IMG/VR virus record: IMGVR_UViG_2671180417_000003
Location: 1-8,583 of that record
Strand: one strand, 5' to 3'
DNA: 8,583 nucleotides
Source of the DNA: a virus
Lineage: Duplodnaviria > Heunggongvirae > Uroviricota > Caudoviricetes
The stretch's first letter is position 1. Every line of letters starts with the position of its first letter. The notes under the pieces were generated by a model. The model did not search any database. It was not told the origin of the DNA and saw only the letters and a list, made by a program, of their open reading frames with translations. Shown one piece after another: positions 1 to 8,583 of this stretch. The translations under genes and the position numbers were made by a program.

Positions 1-138
1 TCTGCTTATCTTCGATTCATGACAGCCAATCATCTTTGCCAGACCGCGCTGGGTAAGCGTTGACAGGTTGATGAGTAAATCAGTTTCAGCGCGATCAATT
101 TCTCGCTGTGATAGTTTGCTGTAACTTGTTTGTTCCAT
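1..138 (-). CDS. CII-like transcriptional activator, N-terminal part only (gene starts at 138 and continues past the window start)
   Basis: Own minus-strand translation from ATG 138..136 is open to position 1: MEQTSYSKLSQREIDRAETDLLINLSTLTQRGLAKMIGCHESKISR. HTH-like segment (GLAKMIGCHESKISR) resembles lambda CII/P22 C1 family; in-frame stop two codons upstream fixes the start; position just downstream of cro-like gene on same strand matches cII. Not in ORF track because no stop inside window. Confidence 0.5.
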   Translation of the reverse strand, partial: MEQTSYSKLSQREIDRAETDLLINLSTLTQRGLAKMIGCHESKISR

Positions 139-176
139 TTCTTAAGATTTCCAATAGTGAATAGCTAGTTGAAAGG

Positions 177-194
177 TATGCGTGGAAACGCATA
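177..194 (-). promoter_or_regulatory. Perfect inverted repeat TATGCG-N6-CGCATA in the cro-like/cII-like intergenic leader (possible tR1-like or leader RNA structure)
   Basis: Plus strand 177-194 tatgcgtggaaacgcata: 6-bp perfect stem, 6-nt loop, followed on the minus strand by CCTTTC; lies 40 nt upstream of the cII-like start. Confidence 0.3.
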
Positions 195-220
195 TGGCCT
201 TAGTTGGTCAGATATATTGG

Positions 221-269
221 GACTCGCTTTGTCAGCGACGTAGGACGAATGTCCATTGTGAAAAGAGCG
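221..269 (-). promoter_or_regulatory. nutR-like region: boxA-like CGCTCTTTT, small hairpin GGAC-ATTC-GTCC, then conserved element TACGTCGCTGACAAAGCG
   Basis: Minus-strand reading just after the cro-like stop: CGCTCTTTT (plus 261-269) matches the lambdoid boxA core CGCTCTT; the 18-mer (plus 225-242) is 17/18 identical to an element in the N leader at 3175-3192; both can form a 4-bp stem around the loop TGACAAA. Confidence 0.45.
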
Positions 270-276
270 GTGTTAC

Positions 277-510
277 TTATGCAGCCGATGCTCTACGCGA
301 TACGAACACTAGGTTTTCCTTTTTCACAGGTTTATAACCCGTGAAATTACGAGTAGCTTCTTCGATTGCATTCGCTTTATCAGGGGAAGCTCTTCGAAAT
401 CCATATGCAATCTGGTCAAGATAGCCAACTGAAGTTTTCGCTAATGCGGCGAGTCGCTTCCATTCCTCACTAGAAGCCTCTTTTCGCCAGCGTAGTAGTT
501 CATTACTCAT
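277..510 (-). CDS. Cro-like small HTH DNA-binding regulator (77 aa)
   Basis: ORF track 277..510; SD GGAGG (plus 516-520 as CCTCC) 5 nt before ATG; HTH-like segment WKRLAALAKTSVGYLDQIAYGFRRASPDKANAIEEAT; divergent from the CI-type repressor across an operator-bearing intergenic region, the canonical cro position. Confidence 0.6.
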   Translation of the reverse strand: MSNELLRWRKEASSEEWKRLAALAKTSVGYLDQIAYGFRRASPDKANAIEEATRNFTGYKPVKKENLVFVSRRASAA

Positions 511-537
511 TAGTGCCTCCGTTTATCACACAGAACA

Positions 538-566
538 ACTTTACCATTTTGATAAATAATCCGCAA
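538..566 (-). promoter_or_regulatory. PR-like promoter for the cro-like gene: -35 TTGCGG (566..561), 17-bp spacer, -10 TAAAGT (543..538)
   Basis: Read on minus strand: TTGCGG-attatttatcaaaatgg-TAAAGT. Same -10 hexamer, same 17-bp spacing and same ATTTATCA motif inside the spacer as the PL-like promoter at 3082-3110. Confidence 0.45.
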
Positions 567-605
567 TGTAAATTTATCATATTGCGTATTTATCCATTTG
601 CTAAA
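540..605. promoter_or_regulatory. OR-like operator cluster: 17-bp dyads TTTACCattttGATAAA (540-556) and TTTATCcatttGCTAAA (589-605) plus half-site TTTATC (573-578); putative leaderless PRM (-10 GAAAAT 612-617)
   Basis: Three copies of the TTTATC/GATAAA half-site between divergent cro-like and cI-like genes; dyads have 6-bp arms and 5-bp AT-rich centre (17 bp, typical lambdoid operator size); the same dyad occurs perfectly at 3092-3108. Confidence 0.5.
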
Positions 606-623
606 TAGAGGGAAAATTGTGAG

Positions 624-1328
624 ATGGAAAACAAAGATATTCGCAAATCGAATCTGGCGTTTTTGCTAGATGAGCATAAAAAAATCGCGGGTAACACTAA
701 TGCAAGCTTTGCCGATAAGCTTGGGGTTAGCCCTTCTCAACTCACGCAAGTCTCCGGTGAAAAAAGCACTCGAAACATAGGGGATAAACTAGCAAGAAAA
801 TTTGAAGCCGCGCTTGGGTTACCTAATGGGTGGCTTGATTTGGTACATGATGTAACACCAATTGCATCATGCTCAGATTCTTTAACTTTTGTCGGTCAGG
901 TAAGAAAAGGGTTAGTGCGCGTGGTTGGTGAGGCAATTCTTGGTGTTGATGGTGCCATCGAGATGACCGAAGAGCGCGATGGGTGGCTCAAAATTTATAG
1001 CGATGATCCAGATGCCTTTGGTCTTCGTGTGAAAGGAGACAGCATGTGGCCCAGAATAAAATCAGGAGAATATGTACTCATTGAGCCTAACACCAAAGTA
1101 TTCCCGGGTGATGAGGTGTTTGTCAGAACCGTTGAAGGACACAACATGATTAAGGTTCTTGGCTATGACAGAGATGGAGAATACCAATTTACAAGCATTA
1201 ACCAGGATCACAGGCCTATAACGTTGCCTTATCATCAAGTAGCAAAGGTGGAGTATGTAGCTGGTATTCTGAAGCAATCTCGCCATCTGGATGACATCGA
1301 GGCAAGGGAGTGGCTGAAAAGTTCGTGA
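624..1328 (+). CDS. cI: CI-type prophage repressor: N-terminal HTH plus C-terminal S24 (LexA-like) peptidase domain, 234 aa
   Basis: ORF track 624..1328; HTH-like SFADKLGVSPSQLTQV; S24 catalytic dyad signature GDSMWP (Ser140) with Lys177 37 residues downstream (LexA-like spacing); divergent from cro-like gene. No Ala-Gly pair in the linker; position-equivalent is Leu106-Gly107. Confidence 0.9.
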   Translation: MENKDIRKSNLAFLLDEHKKIAGNTNASFADKLGVSPSQLTQVSGEKSTRNIGDKLARKFEAALGLPNGWLDLVHDVTPIASCSDSLTFVGQVRKGLVRVVGEAILGVDGAIEMTEERDGWLKIYSDDPDAFGLRVKGDSMWPRIKSGEYVLIEPNTKVFPGDEVFVRTVEGHNMIKVLGYDRDGEYQFTSINQDHRPITLPYHQVAKVEYVAGILKQSRHLDDIEAREWLKSS

Positions 1329-1388
1329 CTTCATCGTCACATAGCTGGTAACCAGTGGCCAGAAGAAACGTTTGGGTGAGGAGGATAG

Positions 1389-1730
1389 ATGGCGTTCACT
1401 GACCTTGAATATCAAGCGGTCAAAAAAGAAGTTCACCAATTCATTGAAAGCATAAGGCCGCCTGAACATATCCGCAATGAACTGGATATTGTTTATAGCA
1501 TCAATGACCAAACGATAGATATCGGCGAACAGCGCCCCGTGTGGCAGGGCAACCCAGGTGAAACAAACATCCTGCCATCAGCAAGAATCAAGTACATACG
1601 TTCTCTGGATAGATGGAAAATCTATTGGATGCGGAAGGATATGAAATGGCATCAGTACAGTACTGAACTTTCGCTGACTGATGCGCTTGAGCTTGTGCGT
1701 GCTGACCCGGATTGCTGCTTCTTCGGATGA
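1389..1730 (+). CDS. Hypothetical protein (113 aa), first gene after the repressor; function unrecognised
   Basis: ORF track 1389..1730; strong SD GAGGAGG (1378-1384) 4 nt before ATG; same strand as cI, 60 bp downstream; GC content similar to phage backbone; ends CCFFG. Confidence 0.7.
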   Translation: MAFTDLEYQAVKKEVHQFIESIRPPEHIRNELDIVYSINDQTIDIGEQRPVWQGNPGETNILPSARIKYIRSLDRWKIYWMRKDMKWHQYSTELSLTDALELVRADPDCCFFG

Positions 1731-1800
1731 GTGAAGAGACGTTTGGATGATGGATGATCGCAGAGATGCTCGTAGAGCATACAGCGATGCAGGAGAATTT

Positions 1801-2235
1801 ATGGCACTTAATTTAGAAAGAATATCTTTTATAACCCCATTTGATAGCAGCGAAGAACCCAACCAACCGACGCTTAATTTTACATGCAATGAATTTCCTG
1901 CGCGGCTATCAATTGATTTCAGGGTTGGTATGATCGGGTTGAAACCAAATTCAAGATATAATTTGGGTATTATGGTAATCCCCGCGCACCTAATTATAAA
2001 AAAAGGTGAGGAAATTCAATTCCCTGACGGCTCTTCGGAATCAGTTTCACTTTTCATCGATACGAAAGATAGCCATTTTGAAACAGGGGTTGGCGGACAG
2101 GTAATAGTAACATTGAAAGAAATTAGGGTCCCAGCTAAAGGGCTGTATAGTGTTATAGGGATATTGCAAGATAATGAAGACCCTAAAAATGAACTTCATA
2201 AAAATGAATCATTTTTCACCGTAGAGCTATTATGA
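1801..2235 (+). CDS. Hypothetical soluble protein (144 aa from ATG 1801; alternative start 1747 gives 162 aa); AT-rich cargo gene
   Basis: ORF track 1747..2235; preferred start ATG 1801 has SD AGGAG (1791-1795) with 5-nt spacer; stop TGA overlaps next start (ATGA at 2232-2235); AT-rich composition; no recognisable catalytic motif. Confidence 0.7.
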   Translation: MALNLERISFITPFDSSEEPNQPTLNFTCNEFPARLSIDFRVGMIGLKPNSRYNLGIMVIPAHLIIKKGEEIQFPDGSSESVSLFIDTKDSHFETGVGGQVIVTLKEIRVPAKGLYSVIGILQDNEDPKNELHKNESFFTVELL

Positions 2236-2852
2236 GTGACGACAGTAATTTAAATAATCATGGAAAGCAAGACACCAACATATCTGAAAGCCGGAGGTTG
2301 AAGGTTGTTGGCGGTTCCGATTTTGAGGCTGAATTTGATAATTCTCCCACCAAGGTGCAAAATAATTACATAAAACCGCCACAAACGGAGGAAGAAGTGG
2401 GAACGATCAGCAGAGAGGAACTTGATGCTCGCTTAGCTGCTAATAAAGCAGAGATGGAGTCTATTGCTTCTTCCATTAGGGCTGACATGGCTCTATCTCG
2501 TGAAAGCGTTAATGTCCAATTTGCATCACTTAATGCAGCCATAAGCTCTCTATCGTCCAAGATCGATGGAAAGATGGATAGCGCTGCTGGCGATATAAAA
2601 GCAATTAATGGGAGATTCGAAGGAATTCAAGGACAAATAACAGGGGTTAATACCGCAATTAGTGGTGTTCAGTCGGGTATTTCTATACGATTAGCCATTT
2701 TTAGTGTCATTATCGCTGTAATAGTTGCGATTCCCGGGCTGGTATCAGCTTTAAAGTCAGACCACGTACCTTTGCAACAGCCTTCCACTTTGCAAGCGCC
2801 GCCACAAAATACCCAGCCAACAGACAACAAAAAAATCACTCCCCAGCATTAA
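2232..2852 (+). CDS. Hypothetical single-pass membrane protein (206 aa) with long Ser/Ala/Ile/Gly-rich helical N-terminal region, one TM helix, Pro/Gln-rich C-tail
   Basis: ORF track 2232..2852; ATGA overlap with upstream gene; hydrophobic stretch IRLAIFSVIIAVIVAIPGLVSAL (about residues 152-174); C-tail KSDHVPLQQPSTLQAPPQNTQPTDNKKITPQH; AT-rich; followed directly by an intrinsic terminator. Confidence 0.75.
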   Translation: MSDDSNLNNHGKQDTNISESRRLKVVGGSDFEAEFDNSPTKVQNNYIKPPQTEEEVGTISREELDARLAANKAEMESIASSIRADMALSRESVNVQFASLNAAISSLSSKIDGKMDSAAGDIKAINGRFEGIQGQITGVNTAISGVQSGISIRLAIFSVIIAVIVAIPGLVSALKSDHVPLQQPSTLQAPPQNTQPTDNKKITPQH

Positions 2853-2858
2853 CGCATT

Positions 2859-2887
2859 AACCCGGCCTCAGCGCCGGGTTTTCTTTG
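2859..2887 (+). terminator. Rho-independent terminator closing the cI-downstream operon
   Basis: AACCCGGC-ctca gc-GCCGGGTT stem (GC-rich, 6-8 bp; 2859-2880) followed by TTTTCTTTG, 7 nt after the stop codon of the membrane-protein gene. Confidence 0.7.
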
Positions 2888-2993
2888 CCTCACGATCCCC
2901 ACACCTAAAAACACATAACCAATTGTATTTGTTGAAAAATAAATAGATACAACTTGCTAAACAACGCAATCCAGATCTCCCTCAAATCTCTTT

Positions 2994-3110
2994 ATTTATC
3001 CTGTCGAATTCCTACAACAAAATAAAACACCATAAGAATCAATACGATATTTGAAAACCAAGAGAATTTATCATTTTGCTATTGCCATTAATTTATCATT
3101 CCGATAAAGT
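2994..3110 (+). promoter_or_regulatory. PL/OL-like region: -35 TTGCCA (3082-3087), 17-bp spacer, -10 TAAAGT (3105-3110); perfect 17-bp operator dyad TTTATCattccGATAAA (3092-3108) plus upstream half-sites at 3067-3072 and 2995-3000
   Basis: Same half-site family (TTTATC/GATAAA) and same promoter hexamers/spacing as the OR/PR-like region at 538-605; shared 10-11-mers AATTTATCAT(T) at 3065-3075, 3090-3100 and 571-580, and TATTTATCC at 2993-3001 and 587-595; positioned about 250 nt upstream of the N-like gene. Confidence 0.5.
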
Positions 3111-3158
3111 TCACCCATCAGCAGGACGCACTACTCACCAGGGCGGTGAATATACAAC

Positions 3159-3193
3159 GATTCGAATATGAATCTACGGCGCTGACAAAGCGC
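3159..3193 (+). promoter_or_regulatory. nutL-like element in the N leader: hairpin GATTC-GAATAT-GAATC followed by TACGGCGCTGACAAAGCGC
   Basis: 18-mer 3175-3192 is 17/18 identical to the minus-strand element at 225-242 in the cro/cII intergenic region; stems GCGC/GCGC here versus TCGC/GCGA there (compensatory change) around identical loop TGACAAA; both are preceded by a small hairpin. Confidence 0.4.
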
Positions 3194-3358
3194 AATAACC
3201 AAAGTGAACTTTGGGGTGTGGTGAAGGGTTCATGGACGGGAATATGTCGCACGTAAAGCGGCGAGGCCTGCGGGACTATTGCCGAATTGAAGTAGGCCGA
3301 AACAGGTCGAAATGGGTCTCCCACCTACCACACCACCAAAGTTCATCAGGAGGTCTAT

Positions 3359-3742
3359 ATGACACGCAGAACTCAGTTCAAAGGCAATTCACGTTCTCGT
3401 CGTCGTGAGCGTTTAAAGGTAAAGGCATTAGCTAACGGCGTACTGGCCCGCGAAGAAGCAATAAGTTCAGAAGTATTACACCGCCCTACTCTAAGCAGAG
3501 CGCAGATTCAGGCTAAAGGTACTCACGAAACGCCTGAGCGCATAGAAGACGCTAAGCCAATTAAGTTCATGGCACAGGACGTGATCTGGCAACAGAAAGA
3601 ATACAGACGCAATCTGGAGCGAGCGGCCATTGTGTACGCGAATGAGTTTGGACATAAGCAACCAGAAACTGGTGTATGTCTTCCAAACGTAGCTCTTTAC
3701 GCGGCAGGCTACCGGAAATCAAAACAACTGACAGCAAGATGA
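3359..3742 (+). CDS. N: N-type transcription antiterminator (127 aa), Stx-phage/933W-like by recollection, with N-terminal arginine-rich motif
   Basis: ORF track 3359..3742; SD AGGAGG (3348-3353) 5 nt before ATG; N-terminus MTRRTQFKGNSRSRRRERLKVKALANG is a classic arginine-rich RNA-binding motif; first gene after the PL-like promoter and long structured leader. Confidence 0.75.
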   Translation: MTRRTQFKGNSRSRRRERLKVKALANGVLAREEAISSEVLHRPTLSRAQIQAKGTHETPERIEDAKPIKFMAQDVIWQQKEYRRNLERAAIVYANEFGHKQPETGVCLPNVALYAAGYRKSKQLTAR

Positions 3743-3803
3743 CTTGTGTTGGTCGCCAGAAAATGAAATTAGGCAGCAAACCACTTATTTGAGAGGAATT
3801 AAT

Positions 3804-4427
3804 ATGTCATCAATCCGCTTAACTACGAGAATGAAAGAGGAAATCGCTCGTAACGCTTTAATTAAGTCCGGGGTGTTCACTGAACTTGAAGAAGTAACAA
3901 AGTTAAAGAACCAGCTTGCACTTGACGCCAGAGTTATTGCGTTTGGCGGTAAAAAGAAAACTGAGGAAGTGGATCAGCTATCATCCAAGTTGGTAGCTAT
4001 AAGTGAAGAACTTGGAAAGATGGGATGTTCATTTTACTCATACGATGTTAGTTCTACTTCAATTTATCTGACTGTATCTGGCAGAAGGGTTGGATGGCAT
4101 TCATATGGGAAAGACGGCAACGGCAAAGATATATTGCTCCCTACTCCGATCAAAGATAAATGCATGTTTGACGCAGAACACGAAATAACAAAAAGGTTTG
4201 ATGAAATCTGCGCATTGCAACAAAAACTTGAAGCCAAGAAAAAGGATATCGAATCAAATGTATGGGCTGCTTTGAACTCAGTCACAACAGTTAAGCGACT
4301 TATTGAAGTTTGGCCTGAAAGCAAAGAATTGCTACCAAAAGAAGCAGATAAAGCAAGTACAGCACTTCCTGCTTTACGGGTAGAAGATTTGAATAAGATG
4401 ATTGGACTTCCTTCCGAGGCCGCATAG
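3804..4427 (+). CDS. Hypothetical protein (208 aa from ATG 3804), AT-rich accessory gene in the N-to-cIII slot
   Basis: ORF track 3744..4427 uses a TTG start; ATG 3804 preferred because of SD GAGAGGA (3791-3797) with 6-nt spacer; hydrophilic, Lys/Glu-rich with predicted coiled-coil-like segments; stop lies inside a terminator hairpin. Confidence 0.7.
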   Translation: MSSIRLTTRMKEEIARNALIKSGVFTELEEVTKLKNQLALDARVIAFGGKKKTEEVDQLSSKLVAISEELGKMGCSFYSYDVSSTSIYLTVSGRRVGWHSYGKDGNGKDILLPTPIKDKCMFDAEHEITKRFDEICALQQKLEAKKKDIESNVWAALNSVTTVKRLIEVWPESKELLPKEADKASTALPALRVEDLNKMIGLPSEAA

Positions 4428-4442
4428 TCGGCCTTTATTTTT
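4417..4442 (+). terminator. Rho-independent terminator (tL1-like) immediately after the 3804-4427 gene
   Basis: AGGCCG-catagt-CGGCCT 6-bp stem (4417-4434) followed by TTATTTTT (4435-4442); stop codon TAG sits in the loop. Confidence 0.65.
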
Positions 4443-4471
4443 GGCATAAACAACAGAATAAATACTGCACT

Positions 4472-4499
4472 GTGTATTCATTCCAACGAGTGAATACAC
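4472..4499. repeat. Perfect 9-bp inverted repeat GTGTATTCA-N10-TGAATACAC
   Basis: Seen directly at 4472-4480 and 4491-4499; no T-tract after it, so more likely a protein-binding dyad or RNA processing structure than a terminator. Confidence 0.4.
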
Positions 4500-4561
4500 G
4501 GAGCAATGTCGCTCGTAACTAAACAGGAGCCGACTTGTTCTGATTATTGGAAATCTTCTTT

Positions 4562-4586
4562 GCCCTCCAGTGTGAGGGCCTTTTTA
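4562..4586 (+). terminator. Rho-independent terminator (tL2-like) upstream of cIII
   Basis: GCCCTC-cagtgt-GAGGGC stem (4562-4579) followed by CTTTTTA; a second weaker hairpin AACGC-N10-GCGTT plus TTTTCG follows at about 4600-4623. Confidence 0.6.
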
Positions 4587-4648
4587 TATGCATACCAATA
4601 ACGCTTCACTCGAGGCGTTTTTCGTTATGTATAAATAAGGAGCACACC

Positions 4649-4813
4649 ATGCAATATGCCATTGCAGGGTGGCCTGTTGCTGGCTGCCCTTCCGAATCTT
4701 TACTTGAACGAATCACCCGTAAATTACGTGACGGATGGAAACGCCTTATCGACATACTTAATCAGCCAGGAGTCCCAAAGAATGGATCAAACACTTATGG
4801 CTATCCAGACTAA
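4649..4813 (+). CDS. cIII: CIII (54 aa), FtsH inhibitor that stabilises CII
   Basis: Translation [54 protein letters not shown] matches lambda CIII as I recall it; SD TAAGGAG (4636-4642) 6 nt before ATG 4649; the ORF-track entry 4547..4813 is an artefactual N-terminal extension through the terminator. Confidence 0.85.
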   Translation: MQYAIAGWPVAGCPSESLLERITRKLRDGWKRLIDILNQPGVPKNGSNTYGYPD

Positions 4814-4925
4814 ATTCACTATCGCCACTTTTATTGGCGATGAAAAGATGTTTCGTGAAGCCGTCGACGCTTATAAAAAATGGATATTAATACTGAAACT
4901 GAGATCAAGCAAAAGCATTCACTAA
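4782..4925 (+). CDS. kil: Kil (47 aa), host cell-division inhibitor
   Basis: [47 protein letters not shown] matches lambda Kil from memory; 32-nt overlap with cIII and 46-nt overlap with the gam long-form start, as in lambda; ORF-track 4656..4925 is an upstream extension. Confidence 0.75.
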
Positions 4926-4998
4926 CCCCTTTCCTGTTTTCCTAATCAGCCCGGCATTTCGCGGGCGATATTTTCACAGCTATTTCAGGAGTTCGGCC

Positions 4999-5295
4999 AT
5001 GAACGCTTATTACATTCAGGATCGTCTTGAGGCTCAGAGCTGGGCGCGTCACTACCAGCAGATAGCCCGTGAAGAGAAAGAGGCAGAACTGGCAGACGAC
5101 ATGGAAAAAGGCCTGCCCCAGCACCTGTTTGAATCGCTATGCATCGGTCATTTGCAACGCCACGGGGCCAGCAAAAAAGCCATTACCCGTGCGTTTGATG
5201 ACGATGTTGAGTTTCAGGAGCGCATGGCAGAACACATCCGGTACATGGTTGAAACCATTGCTCACCATCAGGTTGATATTGATTCAGAGGTATAA
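4999..5295 (+). CDS. gam: Gam, short form (98 aa), RecBCD inhibitor
   Basis: ORF track 4999..5295; near-identical to lambda Gam C-terminal 98 residues from memory; SD AGGAG (4987-4991). The upstream long-form start (ATG 4880) is in a different frame here, see findings. Confidence 0.9.
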
Positions 5296-5300
5296 AACGG

Positions 5301-6086
5301 ATGAGTACAGCACTCGCAACGCTGGCAGGGAAGCTGGCTGAACGTGTCGGCATGGATTCTGTCGACCCACAGGAACTGATCACCACTCTTCGCCAGACGG
5401 CATTTAAAGGCGATGCCAGCGATGCGCAGTTCATCGCATTGTTGATCGTCGCCAACCAGTACGGCCTTAATCCGTGGATGAAAGAAATTTACGCCTTCCC
5501 TGATAAGCAGAACGGCATCGTTCCGGTGGTGGGCGTTGATGGCTGGTCCCGCATCATCAATGAAAACCAGCATTTTGATGGCATGGACTTTGAGCAGGAC
5601 AATGAATCCTGTACATGCCGGATTTACCGCAAGGACCGTAATCATCCGATCTGCGTTACCGAATGGATGGATGAATGCCGCCGCGAACCATTCAAAACCC
5701 GCGAAGGCAGAGAAATCACGGGGCCGTGGCAGTCGCATCCTAAACGGATGTTACGGCATAAAGCTATGATTCAGTGTGCCCGTCTGGCCTTCGGATTTGC
5801 TGGTATCTATGACAAGGATGAAGCCGAGCGCATTGTCGAAAATACTGCATACACTGCAGAACGCCAGCCGGAACGCGACATCACTCCGGTTAACGATGAA
5901 ACCATGCAGGAGATTAACACTCTGCTAATCGCCCTGGATAAAACATGGGATGACGACTTATTGCCGCTCTGTTCCCAGATATTTCGCCGCGACATTCGCG
6001 CATCGTCAGAACTGACACAGGCCGAAGCAGTGAAAGCTCTTGGATTCCTGAAACAGAAAGCCACTGAGCAGAAGGTGGCAGCATGA
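5301..6086 (+). CDS. bet: Bet (Red-beta) single-strand annealing recombinase, 261 aa
   Basis: ORF track 5301..6086; sequence [88 protein letters not shown]... recognised as lambda Bet; followed by exo with ATGA overlap. Confidence 0.95.
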
Positions 6087-6763
6087 CACCGGACATTATC
6101 CTGCAGCGTACCGGGATCGACGTGAGAGCTGTCGAACAGGGGGATGATGCATGGCACAAATTACGGCTCGGCGTCATCACCGCTTCAGAAGTTCACAACG
6201 TGATAGCAAAGCCCCGCTCAGGAAAGAAGTGGCCTGACATGAAAATGTCCTACTTCCACACCCTGCTGGCTGAGGTTTGCACCGGTGTGGCTCCGGAAGT
6301 TAATGCTAAGGCGCTGGCCTGGGGAAAACAGTACGAGAACGACGCCAGAACCCTGTTTGAATTCACTTCCGGCGTGAATGTTACTGAATCCCCGATCATC
6401 TATCGCGACGAAAGTATGCGCACCGCCTGCTCTCCCGATGGTTTATGCAGTGACGGCAACGGCCTTGAGCTGAAATGCCCGTTTACCTCCCGGGATTTCA
6501 TGAAATTCCGGCTCGGTGGTTTCGAGGCCATAAAGTCGGCTTACATGGCCCAGGTGCAGTACAGCATGTGGGTGACGCGAAAAGATGCCTGGTACTTTGC
6601 CAACTATGACCCACGAATGAAGCGTGAAGGCCTGCATTATGTCGTGGTTGAGCGGGATGAAAATTACATGGCGAGTTTTGACGAGATGGTGCCGGAGTTC
6701 ATCGAAAAAATGGACGAGGCACTGGCTGAAATTGGTTTTGTATTTGGGGAGCAATGGCGATGA
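6083..6763 (+). CDS. exo: Exo (lambda exonuclease, Red-alpha), 226 aa
   Basis: ORF track 6083..6763; [69 protein letters not shown]... recognised as lambda Exo; ATGA start overlap with bet stop. Confidence 0.95.
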
Positions 6764-6942
6764 AGCATCCTCACGATAATATCCGCGTAGGCACGATCAC
6801 TTTCGTCTACTCCGTTACAAAGCGAGGCTGGGTATTTCCCGGCCTTTCTGTTATCCAAAATCCACTGAAAGCCCAGCGGCTGGCTGAGGAGATAAATAAT
6901 AAACGAGGGGCTGTATGCACAAAGCATCTCCTGTTGAGTTAA
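6760..6942 (+). CDS. Small protein (60 aa), lambda orf60a-like
   Basis: ATG 6760 overlaps exo stop (ATGA); [60 protein letters not shown]; ORF track gives 6754..6942 from an upstream in-frame ATG. Confidence 0.7.
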
Positions 6943-7106
6943 GAACGAGCATTGAGATGGCACATAGCCTTGCTCAAATTGGAGTCAGGTTTGTGCCAAT
7001 ATCAGTAGAAACAGACGAAGAATTTCATACGTTAGCCGCATCCCTTTCACAAAAGCTGGAAATGATGGTGGCGAAAGCAGAAGCAGATGAGAGAGACCAG
7101 GTATGA
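6915..7106 (+). CDS. Small protein (63 aa), lambda orf63-like
   Basis: ORF track 6915..7106; SD GAGGGG (6905-6910); overlaps preceding gene by 28 nt; sequence [63 protein letters not shown]. Confidence 0.7.
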   Translation: MHKASPVELRTSIEMAHSLAQIGVRFVPISVETDEEFHTLAASLSQKLEMMVAKAEADERDQV

Positions 7107-7186
7107 CAACCACTGAATGCATTCTTCTGGCAGCGGGCTTTATATTCTGTGTGCTTATGCTTGCCGACATGGGACTTGTTCAATGA
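7103..7186 (+). CDS. Candidate small hydrophobic peptide (27 aa) MTTTECILLAAGFIFCVLMLADMGLVQ
   Basis: Own translation; ATG 7103 overlaps the orf63-like stop (ATGA) and its stop overlaps the next start ATG 7183 (ATGA); hydrophobic core compatible with a single TM helix; not in ORF track (below size cutoff). Confidence 0.3.
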   Translation: MTTTECILLAAGFIFCVLMLADMGLVQ

Positions 7187-7398
7187 CACCTCAGCAGGAA
7201 AACGCCCTTCGCAGCATTGCCCGTAAGGCTAATTCTGAAATCAAAAAAGCCAGACAGCAGTTTCCGGATAAAAACGTCGATGACATTTGCCGTAGCGTAC
7301 TGAAGAAGCACCGCGAAACGGTAACGCTGATGGGATTCACACCGACTCACTTAAGTCTGGCAATCGGTATGTTAAACGGCGTCTTTAAGGAACGGTGA
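7183..7398 (+). CDS. Small protein (71 aa from ATG 7183), lambda orf61-like
   Basis: ORF track 7117..7398 starts at an ATG with no SD; ATG 7183 (MTPQQENALRSIARKANSEIKKARQQF...) is translationally coupled to the upstream small ORF; basic, hydrophilic. Confidence 0.6.
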   Translation: MTPQQENALRSIARKANSEIKKARQQFPDKNVDDICRSVLKKHRETVTLMGFTPTHLSLAIGMLNGVFKER

Positions 7399-7419
7399 AC
7401 ATGAAAAGCAAAATCATCA

Positions 7420-7444
7420 GGGAGCCACAGGCTCCTTTTTTATT
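7420..7444 (+). terminator. Rho-independent terminator after the orf61-like gene
   Basis: GGAGCC-aca-GGCTCC stem (7421-7435) followed by TTTTTT (7436-7441) and ATTATT. Confidence 0.55.
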
Positions 7445-7496
7445 ATTCGCATTCACCCTCAAGCGTATTAACCAACAATTCAGGGATTAATGAAAG

Positions 7497-7718
7497 ATGG
7501 CGGACATCATTGATTCAGCATCAGAAATTGAAGAATTACAGCGCAATACAGCAATAAAAATGCGTCGTCTGAACTACCAGACTATATCCGCCACTCATTG
7601 TTGCGAGTGTGGCGATCCGATAGATGAGCGGCGACGCCTGGCTGTTCGTGGATGCAGAGCTTGCGCCAGTTGCCAGCAGGATATTGAACTTATCAACAAA
7701 CAGAGAGGTGTGAAGTGA
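7497..7718 (+). CDS. TraR/DksA-family C4 zinc-finger protein (73 aa), lambda Orf73-like RNA polymerase secondary-channel binder
   Basis: ORF track 7497..7718; four-Cys motif C-C-E-C ... C-R-A-C-A-S-C (CCECGDPIDERRRLAVRGCRACASC) and size typical of TraR; position in exo-ea22 interval. Confidence 0.8.
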   Translation: MADIIDSASEIEELQRNTAIKMRRLNYQTISATHCCECGDPIDERRRLAVRGCRACASCQQDIELINKQRGVK

Positions 7719-7999
7719 ACATCAACACCACGATAACGATCGATACAGCCCTGAACACCGGCCTAGCGCTCCTTGGTTATTTCTACATCATGTTCTGCAG
7801 CGGACGATGGCTGTCACTGTTGTTCATGAAAAAATGGAATAAACGCCGTAAGCAGGAGCAACGCCAAAAGGCAATAGATGCATTTTTCGAAGCCTTCGGT
7901 ATTGACGGCATGGAACCAGGGGATCCAGCTCGCGCAATTAGCAGAGGGGGCGTAGTAATCCTTGTATACCGGAGTGAAGAGAAAAATGAGCAAGATTGA
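7715..7999 (+). CDS. Hypothetical small membrane protein (94 aa), GTG start overlapping upstream stop
   Basis: ORF track 7715..7999; GTG 7715 overlaps TGA of the TraR-like gene; SD AGAGAGG (7702-7708) 6 nt upstream; hydrophobic segment LNTGLALLGYFYIMFCSGRWLSLLF followed by basic KKWNKRRKQEQRQK. Confidence 0.5.
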   Translation: MNINTTITIDTALNTGLALLGYFYIMFCSGRWLSLLFMKKWNKRRKQEQRQKAIDAFFEAFGIDGMEPGDPARAISRGGVVILVYRSEEKNEQD

Positions 8000-8583
8000 C
8001 TATCAGGCACTGCGTGAAAAGGCAGAGAAAGCAACTAAAGGAAGCTACATCGTAGGGCATACATCTGTTAACCAGCACGGCAATTTAACAGGAGTTTTTG
8101 TTTGCCAAAAATGGAAAGGAGAACCCGGTGGCGTGATTGCGGAATGTCATGTTAACTGCCTGATTGAATCAGATGCTCAGGCTTATGCAAACGCTGAATT
8201 CATAGCAGAGGCTAACCCGGCTACCGTGCTGGCACTGCTGGATGAACAGGAAAGAAACCAGCAATACATCAAACGCCGTGACCAGGAGAACGAGGATATT
8301 GCGCTAACGGTAGGGAAGCTGCGTGTTGAGCTTGAAGCAGCAGAGAACAACCTTATTGATAGCGAATGCCATGTTGCTGAACTGGAAGAAGCACTACGCG
8401 ATAAGCAGGCGTTACTTGAAGCCTCAGAAAAGCGCAACGCAAAATTACAAAGCGAGAATGCATACATCCGCAACCGGTACAAAGAACTGGACCTATTAAT
8501 CGGGAAAAACATTCTGGTCATGCAGGCTGCCATTATCGAATGGCAGGCAACTGGCGACGCTAAGAGCGGACTAGCATGGATTT
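7986..8583 (+). CDS. Ea22-like protein, N-terminal 199 codons (runs off window end)
   Basis: Own translation from ATG 7986 is open to the window end: MSKIDYQALREKAEKATKGSYIVGHTSVNQHGNLTGVFVCQKWKGEPGGVIAECHVNCLIESDAQAYANAEFIAEANPATVLALLDEQERNQQYIKRRDQENEDIALTVGKLRVELEAAENNLIDSECHVAELEEALRDKQALLEASEKRNAKLQSENAYIRNRYKELDLLIGKNILVMQAAIIEWQATGDAKSGLAWI; coiled-coil-rich C-terminal part; N-terminus resembles Ea22-family proteins from memory. Missing from ORF track because no stop inside window. Confidence 0.7.
   Translation, partial: MSKIDYQALREKAEKATKGSYIVGHTSVNQHGNLTGVFVCQKWKGEPGGVIAECHVNCLIESDAQAYANAEFIAEANPATVLALLDEQERNQQYIKRRDQENEDIALTVGKLRVELEAAENNLIDSECHVAELEEALRDKQALLEASEKRNAKLQSENAYIRNRYKELDLLIGKNILVMQAAIIEWQATGDAKSGLAWI

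Follow-up and report, generated by a model that had tools for sequence, protein, structure and literature searches.

A stand-alone Nmad5 gene in the ral position of a lambdoid early-left operon: a candidate non-enzymatic adaptor

Which protein occupies the interval between the antiterminator gene N and cIII in the virus record IMGVR_UViG_2671180417_000003, and what might it do so early in infection? The window, that is the whole stretch of 8,583 nucleotides analysed here (positions 1 to 8,583 of the record), is the early-left region of a lambdoid genome of the Shiga toxin (Stx) phage, mEp235 and HK542-like kind, with the PL operon on the plus strand. A sequence-only reading of this DNA had described the gene at 3804-4427 as coding for an unrecognised protein of 208 amino acids and had proposed it as an anti-defence or exclusion factor. 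The open reading frame (ORF) has 207 codons and encodes 207 amino acids, and the protein is not an unrecognised one, as it belongs over its full length to Pfam family PF18757 (Nmad5, 'nucleotide modification associated domain 5') and carries that name in RefSeq. The gene takes the place of ral in the lambdoid PL operon, as an exchangeable cassette of one gene. As to its function, we lean, at somewhat less than an even chance, towards a non-enzymatic early adaptor, which would use a basic patch and a C-terminal tail where phage DNA metabolism meets the host and thereby alter what host sensors see.

Family identity and conserved surface of the protein

The gene and the elements in and around it are the following.

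3804-4427, plus strand: Nmad5-family gene, an intact ORF with ATG at 3804 and TAG at 4425-4427; 207 amino acids, 23 kDa, single domain
3791-3797, plus strand: Shine-Dalgarno sequence GAGAGGA, 6 nt before the ATG, or 7 nt counted from its GAGG core
4287-4319, plus strand: signature motif from the family alignments, codons 162-172, T-T-V-K164-R165-L-I-E-V-W-P-E
4389-4412, plus strand: C-terminal tail motif, codons 196-203, L-N-K-M-I-G-L-P, with N197, G201 and P203 near-invariant
3740-3793, plus strand: left slot junction, a conserved 54-nt linker that ends inside the Shine-Dalgarno sequence
4416-4445, plus strand: intrinsic terminator, with stem 4416-4422 / 4429-4435, the TAG stop within the loop CATAGT, and a T-tract after it

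The protein matches PF18757 with 240.2 bits (cutoff 27; E 3.1e-71), its residues 4-203 aligning to profile positions 1-206 of 206, and it matches phrog_1965, a family of unknown function, at E 3e-83. All signature residues of the family are present (T162, K164, R165, L166, W170, P171, E172, L196, N197, G201 and P203). Homologues fall into 70 close and, at 50% identity clustering and E <= 1e-3, 2,318 distant clusters. Among the 150 best-scoring family representatives nearly all are stand-alone proteins of 190-220 amino acids, and 152 of 152 PF18757 profile hits carry that domain alone, so that a search of these hits for domain fusions ('Rosetta stone' evidence) found none; the window gene fits the stand-alone, single-domain form of ~190-215 amino acids. 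Judged by sequence comparison, the coding status of 3804-4427 is beyond doubt, because homologues of 33-97% identity keep its length and the distant clusters are so many. An alternative in-frame TTG start at 3744 would lengthen the ORF; as the PHROG alignment begins at residue 23 of this longer form and the homologues start with MSSIRLT, TTG 3744 was ruled out and ATG 3804 is taken as the real start. For an antisense ORF of 129 amino acids at 4064-4453, neither a family match nor conservation across lineages was seen.

In agreement with the sequence-only reading, a strong Shine-Dalgarno sequence precedes the ATG, and the protein is hydrophilic and rich in Lys (23 residues) and Glu (20 residues), with a grand average of hydropathy of -0.32, a pI of 7.6 and no membrane segment. 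That reading had also called the gene AT-rich and unlike its flanks. The AT-richness is real but modest: a GC content of 40.4% compares with 48.4% and 43.6% in the left and right 624-nt flanks and lies at the 9.5th percentile among all 624-nt windows of the stretch, and the ORF at 1747-2235 has an even lower value.

The gene is already catalogued and is not a newly discovered element. It is present in 211 of 5,426 complete E. coli genomes (3.9%), in which its RefSeq product name is 'Nmad5 family putative nucleotide modification protein', and 77 phage records contain copies of at least 95% identity, the carriers including HK542, HK244, mEp235, Kapi1 and APC_JM3.2 as well as Stx1a and Stx2a converting phages. 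In the APC_JM3.2 record (MG197996.1, 36192-36815) a 97% identical gene is labelled 'Smchd1', which looks like the spurious transfer of a eukaryotic name. Several genera of lytic phages have more distant members as core genes (148 Dhillonvirus records, Yuavirus and several N4-like phages); the gene was found in every Dhillonvirus examined, and the motifs are kept from cyanophage to coliphage. On plasmids the family is nearly absent. Only six of 72,556 plasmid records carry it, all phage-sized and non-mobilizable, and it was not found in conjugative plasmids among these records, which leaves a link to plasmid anti-defence islands without support.

The family has no established function, and its name rests on gene neighbourhood, not on an assay. 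It was reportedly first described by Iyer et al. in NAR in 2013; a literature search on PF18757, IPR040835 and phrog_1965, and also on the PhiR12/mEp recombinant phages, turned up no paper. Searches with the window protein gave no match to the Ral family in Pfam (E <= 1) or PHROG (E <= 0.1), none to SieB in the same two scans, and none to Ea10 or an OB-fold single-stranded DNA-binding protein (SSB) in Pfam, PHROG or fold searches. Likewise, none of the PHROG anti-restriction families matched, PADLOC-DB returned 0 families at E <= 1, no NCBIfam model matched, and a sequence search of the PDB gave nothing meaningful. The 'NMAD' domain of a validated defence system in the DefensePredictor paper was considered as a relative and rejected, since according to the supplements it is Nmad2 (PF18753), another family.

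Structure prediction followed by Foldseek, which the sequence-only reading had proposed as a check, gave consistent models but no informative neighbour. Two AlphaFold2 (AF2) runs with 26 and 51 sequences agree, with predicted local distance difference test (pLDDT) values of 85.3 and 87.6 and predicted template modelling (pTM) scores of 0.71 and 0.74. The models begin with three N-terminal helices (8-72), continue with a beta-hairpin region (86-125) and a long helix (127-158), and then show small helices with the sequence WPESKELLP (163-176), a disordered linker (184-191) and a tail helix of low confidence (193-200). The best Foldseek match of this fold in the PDB has an E-value of 0.19, and among the viral predicted structures of BFVD only other Nmad5 proteins were returned. 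According to the alignments, residues G93, L166, W170, P171, E172, P178, L196, N197, G201 and P203 are invariant across the family, and no catalytic-looking constellation was seen among them.

Two conserved elements stand out. The first is the signature motif, which has the family form T-x-K-[KR]-L-x-x-x-W-P-E and in which the position of R165 is Lys or Arg in 227 of 275 family sequences. The second is the tail motif, N-x-[LMI]-[IV]-G-[LI]-P, present in 264 of the 275 at a median of 5 residues from the C-terminus. Its pLDDT is 45-60 in both AF2 models; such low confidence in a near-invariant tail is expected if the tail docks and becomes folded on a partner or within an oligomer, and the tail is hence a candidate docking motif. 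Its form N-x-x-I-G-L-P resembles what we take to be beta-clamp-binding motifs (QLxLxL and QxxLxP), an analogy that may serve as a lead only.

The basic position of the signature motif coincides with a residue that was hit in published experiments on relatives. In Dhillonviruses, escape from the Tmn defence maps to Nmad5, to the substitution K216E in phage SM_A8 or K296E in phage SM_S22, and reversion of the escape mutation restores sensitivity to Tmn (PMC11846954). Deletion of the gene gives viable phage that do not escape, the wild-type protein confers no protection from Tmn, and the wild-type gene could not be cloned and was apparently toxic (PMC11846954). The escape allele thus looks like a gain of function; the Tmn synergy paper holds no information on the Tmn trigger. 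Located in the deposited genomes, both lysines align with R165 of the window protein, and their numbers differ solely through 80 extra N-terminal codons annotated in SM_S22. In that record (PP627283.1, 1506-2510, minus strand) the 80-codon 5' extension overlaps a scaffold gene on the opposite strand, and the SM_A8 orthologue and all other Dhillonvirus Nmad5 proteins start with MRLTKDIK. From these sequences K296E and K216E are the same residue, and the SM_S22 start is probably mis-annotated.

The one-gene cassette and its transcription

Alignments across the left and right junctions define the cassette, which extends from 3794 to ~4428. On the left, translation of the 54-nt linker gives VTCVGRQKMKLGSKPLI*, with which N proteins of the phage-21 type end, and with the longer 24-residue form from mEp235, KPRSEMGVTCVGRQKMKLGSKPLI*, tblastn hits the 3' ends of annotated N genes in phage 21, HK542, HK544 and mEp043. 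By sequence, then, the linker is a non-coding remnant of an N gene of the phage-21 type, from whose 3' end it derives, and it lies behind an N gene of the 933W type. Since this remnant is also found in front of unrelated cassettes of other phages, it seems to be a recombination joint. The junction alignment divides the Shine-Dalgarno sequence, its first three bases belonging to the shared linker and the remainder being cassette-specific.

On the right, the 3' arm of the terminator and the T-tract are shared backbone, and the 5' arm comes from the last codons of the cassette. One terminator is in this way common to three unrelated genes, namely Nmad5, ral of lambda (locus L088, ~1990-2030) and an 84-residue ORF of mEp234 (locus L234, 1185-1211), each of which supplies a complementary 5' arm and has its stop codon in or near the loop; the homology to lambda starts exactly at the last base of ral. 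The hairpin itself, GAGGCCG-CATAGT-CGGCCTT (4416-4435), is structurally ordinary, as its energy is -11 kcal/mol with a z-score of -1.07, and curated records label the element at 4416-4445 as a rho-independent terminator. Two statements of the sequence-only reading, that the gene lies in the accessory slot between N and cIII and that its stop codon sits in a terminator loop, are thereby borne out.

The same N and cIII flanks enclose other content in other phages: an Ea10/SSB gene with a 156-residue ORF in 933W-like phages, Sakai and BP-4795, gp17 in H-19B, ral and sieB in lambda, an anti-restriction gene in ECP1, and ORFs of 84 and 322 residues in mEp234. Comparison of Nmad5 with these alternative cassettes by hhalign gave probabilities below 1% and hence no remote homology. 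The recombination module downstream also differs among carriers, being Red in the window, Erf/SSB/Abc2 in mEp235 and RecT in Kapi1. In 48 Stx2a phage records an insertion sequence (IS) element of the IS3 family splits the Nmad5 gene. In LC616032.1 (234-2021) and the 47 similar records, the IS3 element lies near the 5' end of the gene with orfA/orfB on the opposite strand, a remnant ORF of 152 residues is left, and an Ea10-like gene follows in the same interval. With these interrupted copies and the viable Dhillonvirus deletion, the gene is dispensable in relatives. Of the proposal that it is a moron, a bounded and dispensable cassette is therefore what stands; its place as a core gene of lytic genera, its near-absence from plasmids and its recurrence in replication and recombination modules are atypical of an anti-defence moron.

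The remaining features of the window that bear on the expression of the cassette are listed here.

277-510, minus strand: cro-like ORF
624-1328: gene of an S24-type repressor
1389-2852: three co-oriented ORFs between the repressor gene and PL, in the position of lambda rexAB
2859-2880: terminator after these three ORFs
3065-3075 and 3090-3100: repeated operator-like sites, AATTTATCATT, flanking the PL-like promoter
3082-3110, plus strand: PL-like sigma-70 promoter TTGCCA-17-TAAAGT, its function inferred from its position relative to the repressor gene and N
3179-3193, plus strand: boxB-type hairpin GCGCTGACAAAGCGC, a candidate for nutL, ahead of N in the PL leader
3359-3742, plus strand: N antiterminator gene of the 933W type (Pfam PF25694, E 2.2e-15; phrog_271, E 1e-37)
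4436-4648, plus strand: ORF-free spacer of 213 nt with two further terminator-like hairpins (4562-4579 and 4600-4619)
4649-4813, plus strand: cIII gene, the downstream boundary of the slot (Pfam PF02061, E 1.5e-30)
downstream of cIII: kil, gam, bet and exo

The sequence-only reading had the gene expressed early from PL under control of N. The PL-like promoter and the boxB-type hairpin, which we take to be of the P22 type, fit the first part of this statement; a boxA of the lambda consensus was not found above chance in the PL leader. The dependence on N is less certain. A terminator scan from PL to 4416 yielded nothing convincing, its sole site being a weak consensus match inside N (3661-3673) that was discounted as chance, and no promoter was predicted between PL and the Nmad5 gene. 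One would thus expect the gene to share a transcript with N and to lie upstream of the first convincing intrinsic terminator, and by this reading of the sequence N antitermination may not be needed for it; termination dependent on Rho is conceivable. The spacer behind the cassette (4436-4648) occupies the position of ea10 in lambda, 434 and 933W-like phages.

Further upstream, the ORF at 1389-1730 encodes a DUF3024 protein (Pfam E 2.4e-31) for which PADLOC returns the candidate defence protein PDC-S43 (E 7e-42). Its two neighbours, at 1747-2235 and 2232-2852, belong to phrog_5893 and phrog_5820, both of unknown function, and the second shows weak coiled-coil-like matches and a hydrophobic C-terminal stretch in its translation. 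Together, the three ORFs at 1389-2852 are a candidate for a prophage-expressed defence cassette.

Gene neighbourhoods and possible functions

The name of the family suggests nucleotide modification, and we therefore surveyed which genes accompany Nmad5. A census covered 34 lineages dereplicated at 70% identity and scored, over all ORFs, features within ±6 kb on the same strand; its counts are biased by our own crude ORF calling, a limited seed set and the retrieval of loci by a WPE-motif pattern. PolA was the most frequent neighbour (14 of 34 lineages), followed by an upstream repressor (11/34), a DUF2800 nuclease (6/34), an Enc34 SSB and an adjoining DnaQ-like exonuclease (4/34 each), ThyX or thymidylate synthase (3/34), a DNA methyltransferase and DUF4406 (2/34 each), and PurZ and aGPT-Pplase (1/34 each). 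Taken together, 17 lineages have a replication or recombination gene nearby and six a gene of modification or nucleotide metabolism. The ranking was the same when 150 genes up to ±3 positions from Nmad5 were scanned with Pfam and PHROG, and an additional contig scan with a strict pattern returned only 12 prophage loci from Enterobacterales and contributed little. The commonest companions of Nmad5 are thus replication and recombination genes, not modification genes.

Individual loci illustrate this. In prophages of Serratia, Providencia and Klebsiella, the repressor and a regulatory gap of ~380 nt (~1.1 kb in Providencia) are followed first by Nmad5 and then either by kil or by a module of DUF2800, Enc34 SSB and PolA. 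Vibrio phage Athena1 has it just before the gene for replication protein O, in another phage it is followed by an Rv2179c-like exonuclease gene and, further on, PolA, and in one N4-like phage the order is PolI, ThyX, Nmad5, a hypothetical gene and primase. A Pam3-like phage has PolA and then, after a gap, Nmad5, a DnaQ-like exonuclease and PurZ/DatZ-type genes. Yuavirus MP1412 carries Nmad5 next to PolA and inside the cassette for 5-NedU hypermodification, where it adjoins aGPT-Pplase and a thymidylate-synthase-like gene. In the window the gene is surrounded by N, cIII, kil, gam, bet and exo, and no gene for a modification or nucleotide enzyme was found among its neighbours in the PL operon; none of the 61 genes of mEp235, which carries a 97% identical copy, is annotated as a modification enzyme.

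On this basis, the reading that we tentatively prefer runs as follows. The Nmad5 protein would be a small helical-bundle adaptor rather than an enzyme, made very early in infection or induction. Its basic patch, K164/R165 beside W170-P171-E172, and the flexible LN..IGLP tail would bind a partner conserved across very different hosts, which could be phage DNA, an intermediate of replication or recombination, or a universal host protein of DNA metabolism. Such binding would assist or shield phage DNA transactions and, as a side effect, change what host defence sensors such as Tmn perceive. Being dispensable in the laboratory, the gene could be freely swapped with ral, ea10 and other accessory cassettes. 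The protein would itself neither modify nucleotides nor protect the lysogen.

Several observations weigh against this adaptor. None of the tested neighbours was present in 11 of the 34 lineages, and in Dhillonvirus the gene stands alone and oppositely oriented among head genes, as it also lies among head genes in one further phage. The six lineages with modification neighbours (the 5-NedU cassette, ThyX, DUF4406 with Dam or MT-A70, and PurZ/DatZ) make a modification-linked role possible. The Tmn data come from a homologue of 24-25% identity with a large insertion and not from the window protein. Finally, we infer the mechanism from the anatomy of the protein and its context, and the partner and the binding are proposals.

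Of the alternatives, a dedicated counter-defence protein survives best, and we regard it as possible, if unlikely. Nmad5 would then be an immediate-early inhibitor of a DNA-targeting or abortive-infection defence in the manner of Ral or Ocr, which binds and neutralises, for instance, a type I restriction-modification enzyme or a KAP NTPase such as Tmn. The exact position of the ral cassette, the same terminator end and the alternatives in the slot, which include ral, sieB and an annotated anti-restriction gene, would agree with this, as would the first place in the early-left operon of several prophages and a dispensable gene that is patchy among lambdoids and E. coli genomes. In addition, a single substitution at the signature basic residue lets a Dhillonvirus escape Tmn (PMC11846954). 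The same study nevertheless argues against it, since the wild type does not shield from Tmn, deletion is without effect and the escape allele resembles a gain of function (PMC11846954). Lytic genera moreover keep the family as a conserved core gene, and its motifs persist across very distant phages, unlike the usual narrow and fast-evolving anti-defence genes; the family is also nearly absent from plasmids, conjugative ones included. An anti-defence role of Nmad5 is a plausible hypothesis; the sequence-only proposal of anti-restriction or anti-defence has gained a Tmn link through one family member.

A broader form of this idea, which we consider distinctly unlikely, holds that the family is misnamed and that the basic patch and the LN..IGLP tail engage a universal host component of DNA metabolism or immunity, which would make Nmad5 a general module of counter-defence and immune evasion. 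If it were true, the Tmn-escape residue would mark the functional surface of Nmad5, and the gene would be a functional alternative to ral in lambdoid and Stx phages.

It is improbable that Nmad5 is a host-takeover or host-toxic factor of the kil/cIII kind, which would block an essential host process early (replication, division or transcription) and have no specific relation to defence or phage DNA. The apparent toxicity of the Dhillonvirus homologue on cloning (PMC11846954), the operon segment shared with kil and cIII and the early expression are consistent with such a factor. That toxicity, however, was seen in a distant homologue only and as a failure to clone only, the recurrent modules with PolA, exonucleases and SSB would be left unexplained, and Pfam and fold searches found no similarity to known host inhibitors.

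No less improbable is a non-catalytic accessory of DNA or nucleotide modification, acting as a specificity, targeting or stimulatory factor. The six lineages with such neighbours, which represent four unrelated chemistries, are the evidence for it: the Yuavirus cassette, the ThyX neighbour in N4-like phages, the PurZ/DatZ-type cluster of the Pam3-like phage and the Aeromonas-type prophages. In the latter, the order from cI to int includes DUF4406, Nmad5, a further gene and a methyltransferase of the Dam, C5 or MT-A70 kind. DUF4406, presumably a family resembling nucleoside 2-deoxyribosyltransferases, overlaps the start of Nmad5 by 4 nt in two of these prophages (L236, 5660-6615, and L238, 5663-6609), and this overlap suggests translational coupling. 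If anything still hints at a link to modification, it is above all the context of DUF4406, Nmad5 and methyltransferase. Against such an accessory, four chemically unrelated systems speak against a role in any one chemistry, and 28 of the 34 lineages have no such neighbour among the tested families. The 5-NedU pathway of phage M6 was reconstituted in vitro from purified gp54, gp51, gp53 and gp52; the adjacent Nmad5 homologue is thus not needed for this chemistry, because the pathway runs without it (PMC8989533). A further point against it is that neither the PL operon of the window nor the mEp235 genome as annotated contains a modifying enzyme. The accessory would here have to depend on a host enzyme, as Ral does via EcoKI, or on a phage methyltransferase outside the window.

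A moron for exclusion or defence, expressed by the prophage to protect its lysogen in the manner of sieB or rex, is the other half of the sequence-only proposal and is very unlikely. Lambda and P22-type phages do have sieB in this slot, and the Nmad5 gene is AT-rich and cassette-like. It is, however, co-oriented within the repressor-controlled PL operon with no predicted promoter of its own (sieB of lambda lies on the opposite strand), its hydrophilic product has no membrane segment and no PADLOC match, and strictly lytic phages carry the family as a core gene.

The question matters because a family present in ~4% of complete E. coli genomes carries a name that implies an enzymatic role without evidence for it. 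It is also found in Stx1 and Stx2 converting phages, in N4-like and M6-like phages and in Dhillonvirus, a genus used for phage therapy. New points of this analysis are the exact positional replacement of ral, the frequent place of Nmad5 as the first early-left gene of temperate phages, and the identity of the only residue with a known phenotype, that of Tmn escape, with the signature basic residue of the family. If Nmad5 is a factor of the host interface or of counter-defence, it bears on the host range of Stx phages and on the engineering of therapeutic phages; should it prove inert in tests of this kind, it would be one more lambdoid accessory gene.

Comparison with known systems

SieB has been placed in the same slot, but Nmad5 is instead a predicted hydrophilic helical bundle without a predicted promoter of its own. 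As an analogy from general knowledge, T7 Ocr may be compared with Nmad5, which like Ocr is the first or nearly the first early-operon protein in many temperate carriers; Ocr is a highly acidic DNA mimic, whereas Nmad5 has a near-neutral pI and no structural similarity to it. The Ea10/SSB-like genes, the 156-residue ORF of the 933W type, the mEp234 ORFs, gp17 of P22 and H-19B, and sieB are interchangeable with Nmad5 at the same junctions.

Lambda Ral acts on EcoKI, by which it alleviates restriction. With 66 amino acids against 207 it is much smaller than Nmad5, and the two have no sequence or family relationship. They agree in their position as an early PL cassette after N, in the stop codon within the loop of the same terminator, and in being small and dispensable.

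The closest counterparts are the Nmad5 relatives themselves, CDS6 of the Dhillonviruses SM_A8 and SM_S22 and MP1412_15 and SN1_019 of Yuavirus. The Dhillonvirus protein is 24-25% identical to that of the window, contains an insertion of ~50 residues and is encoded among head genes, and the Yuavirus gene lies inside a 5-NedU cassette whereas the window gene has no modification genes nearby. The relatives nevertheless share with the window protein the same motifs, the stand-alone form of ~200 amino acids and the predicted fold.

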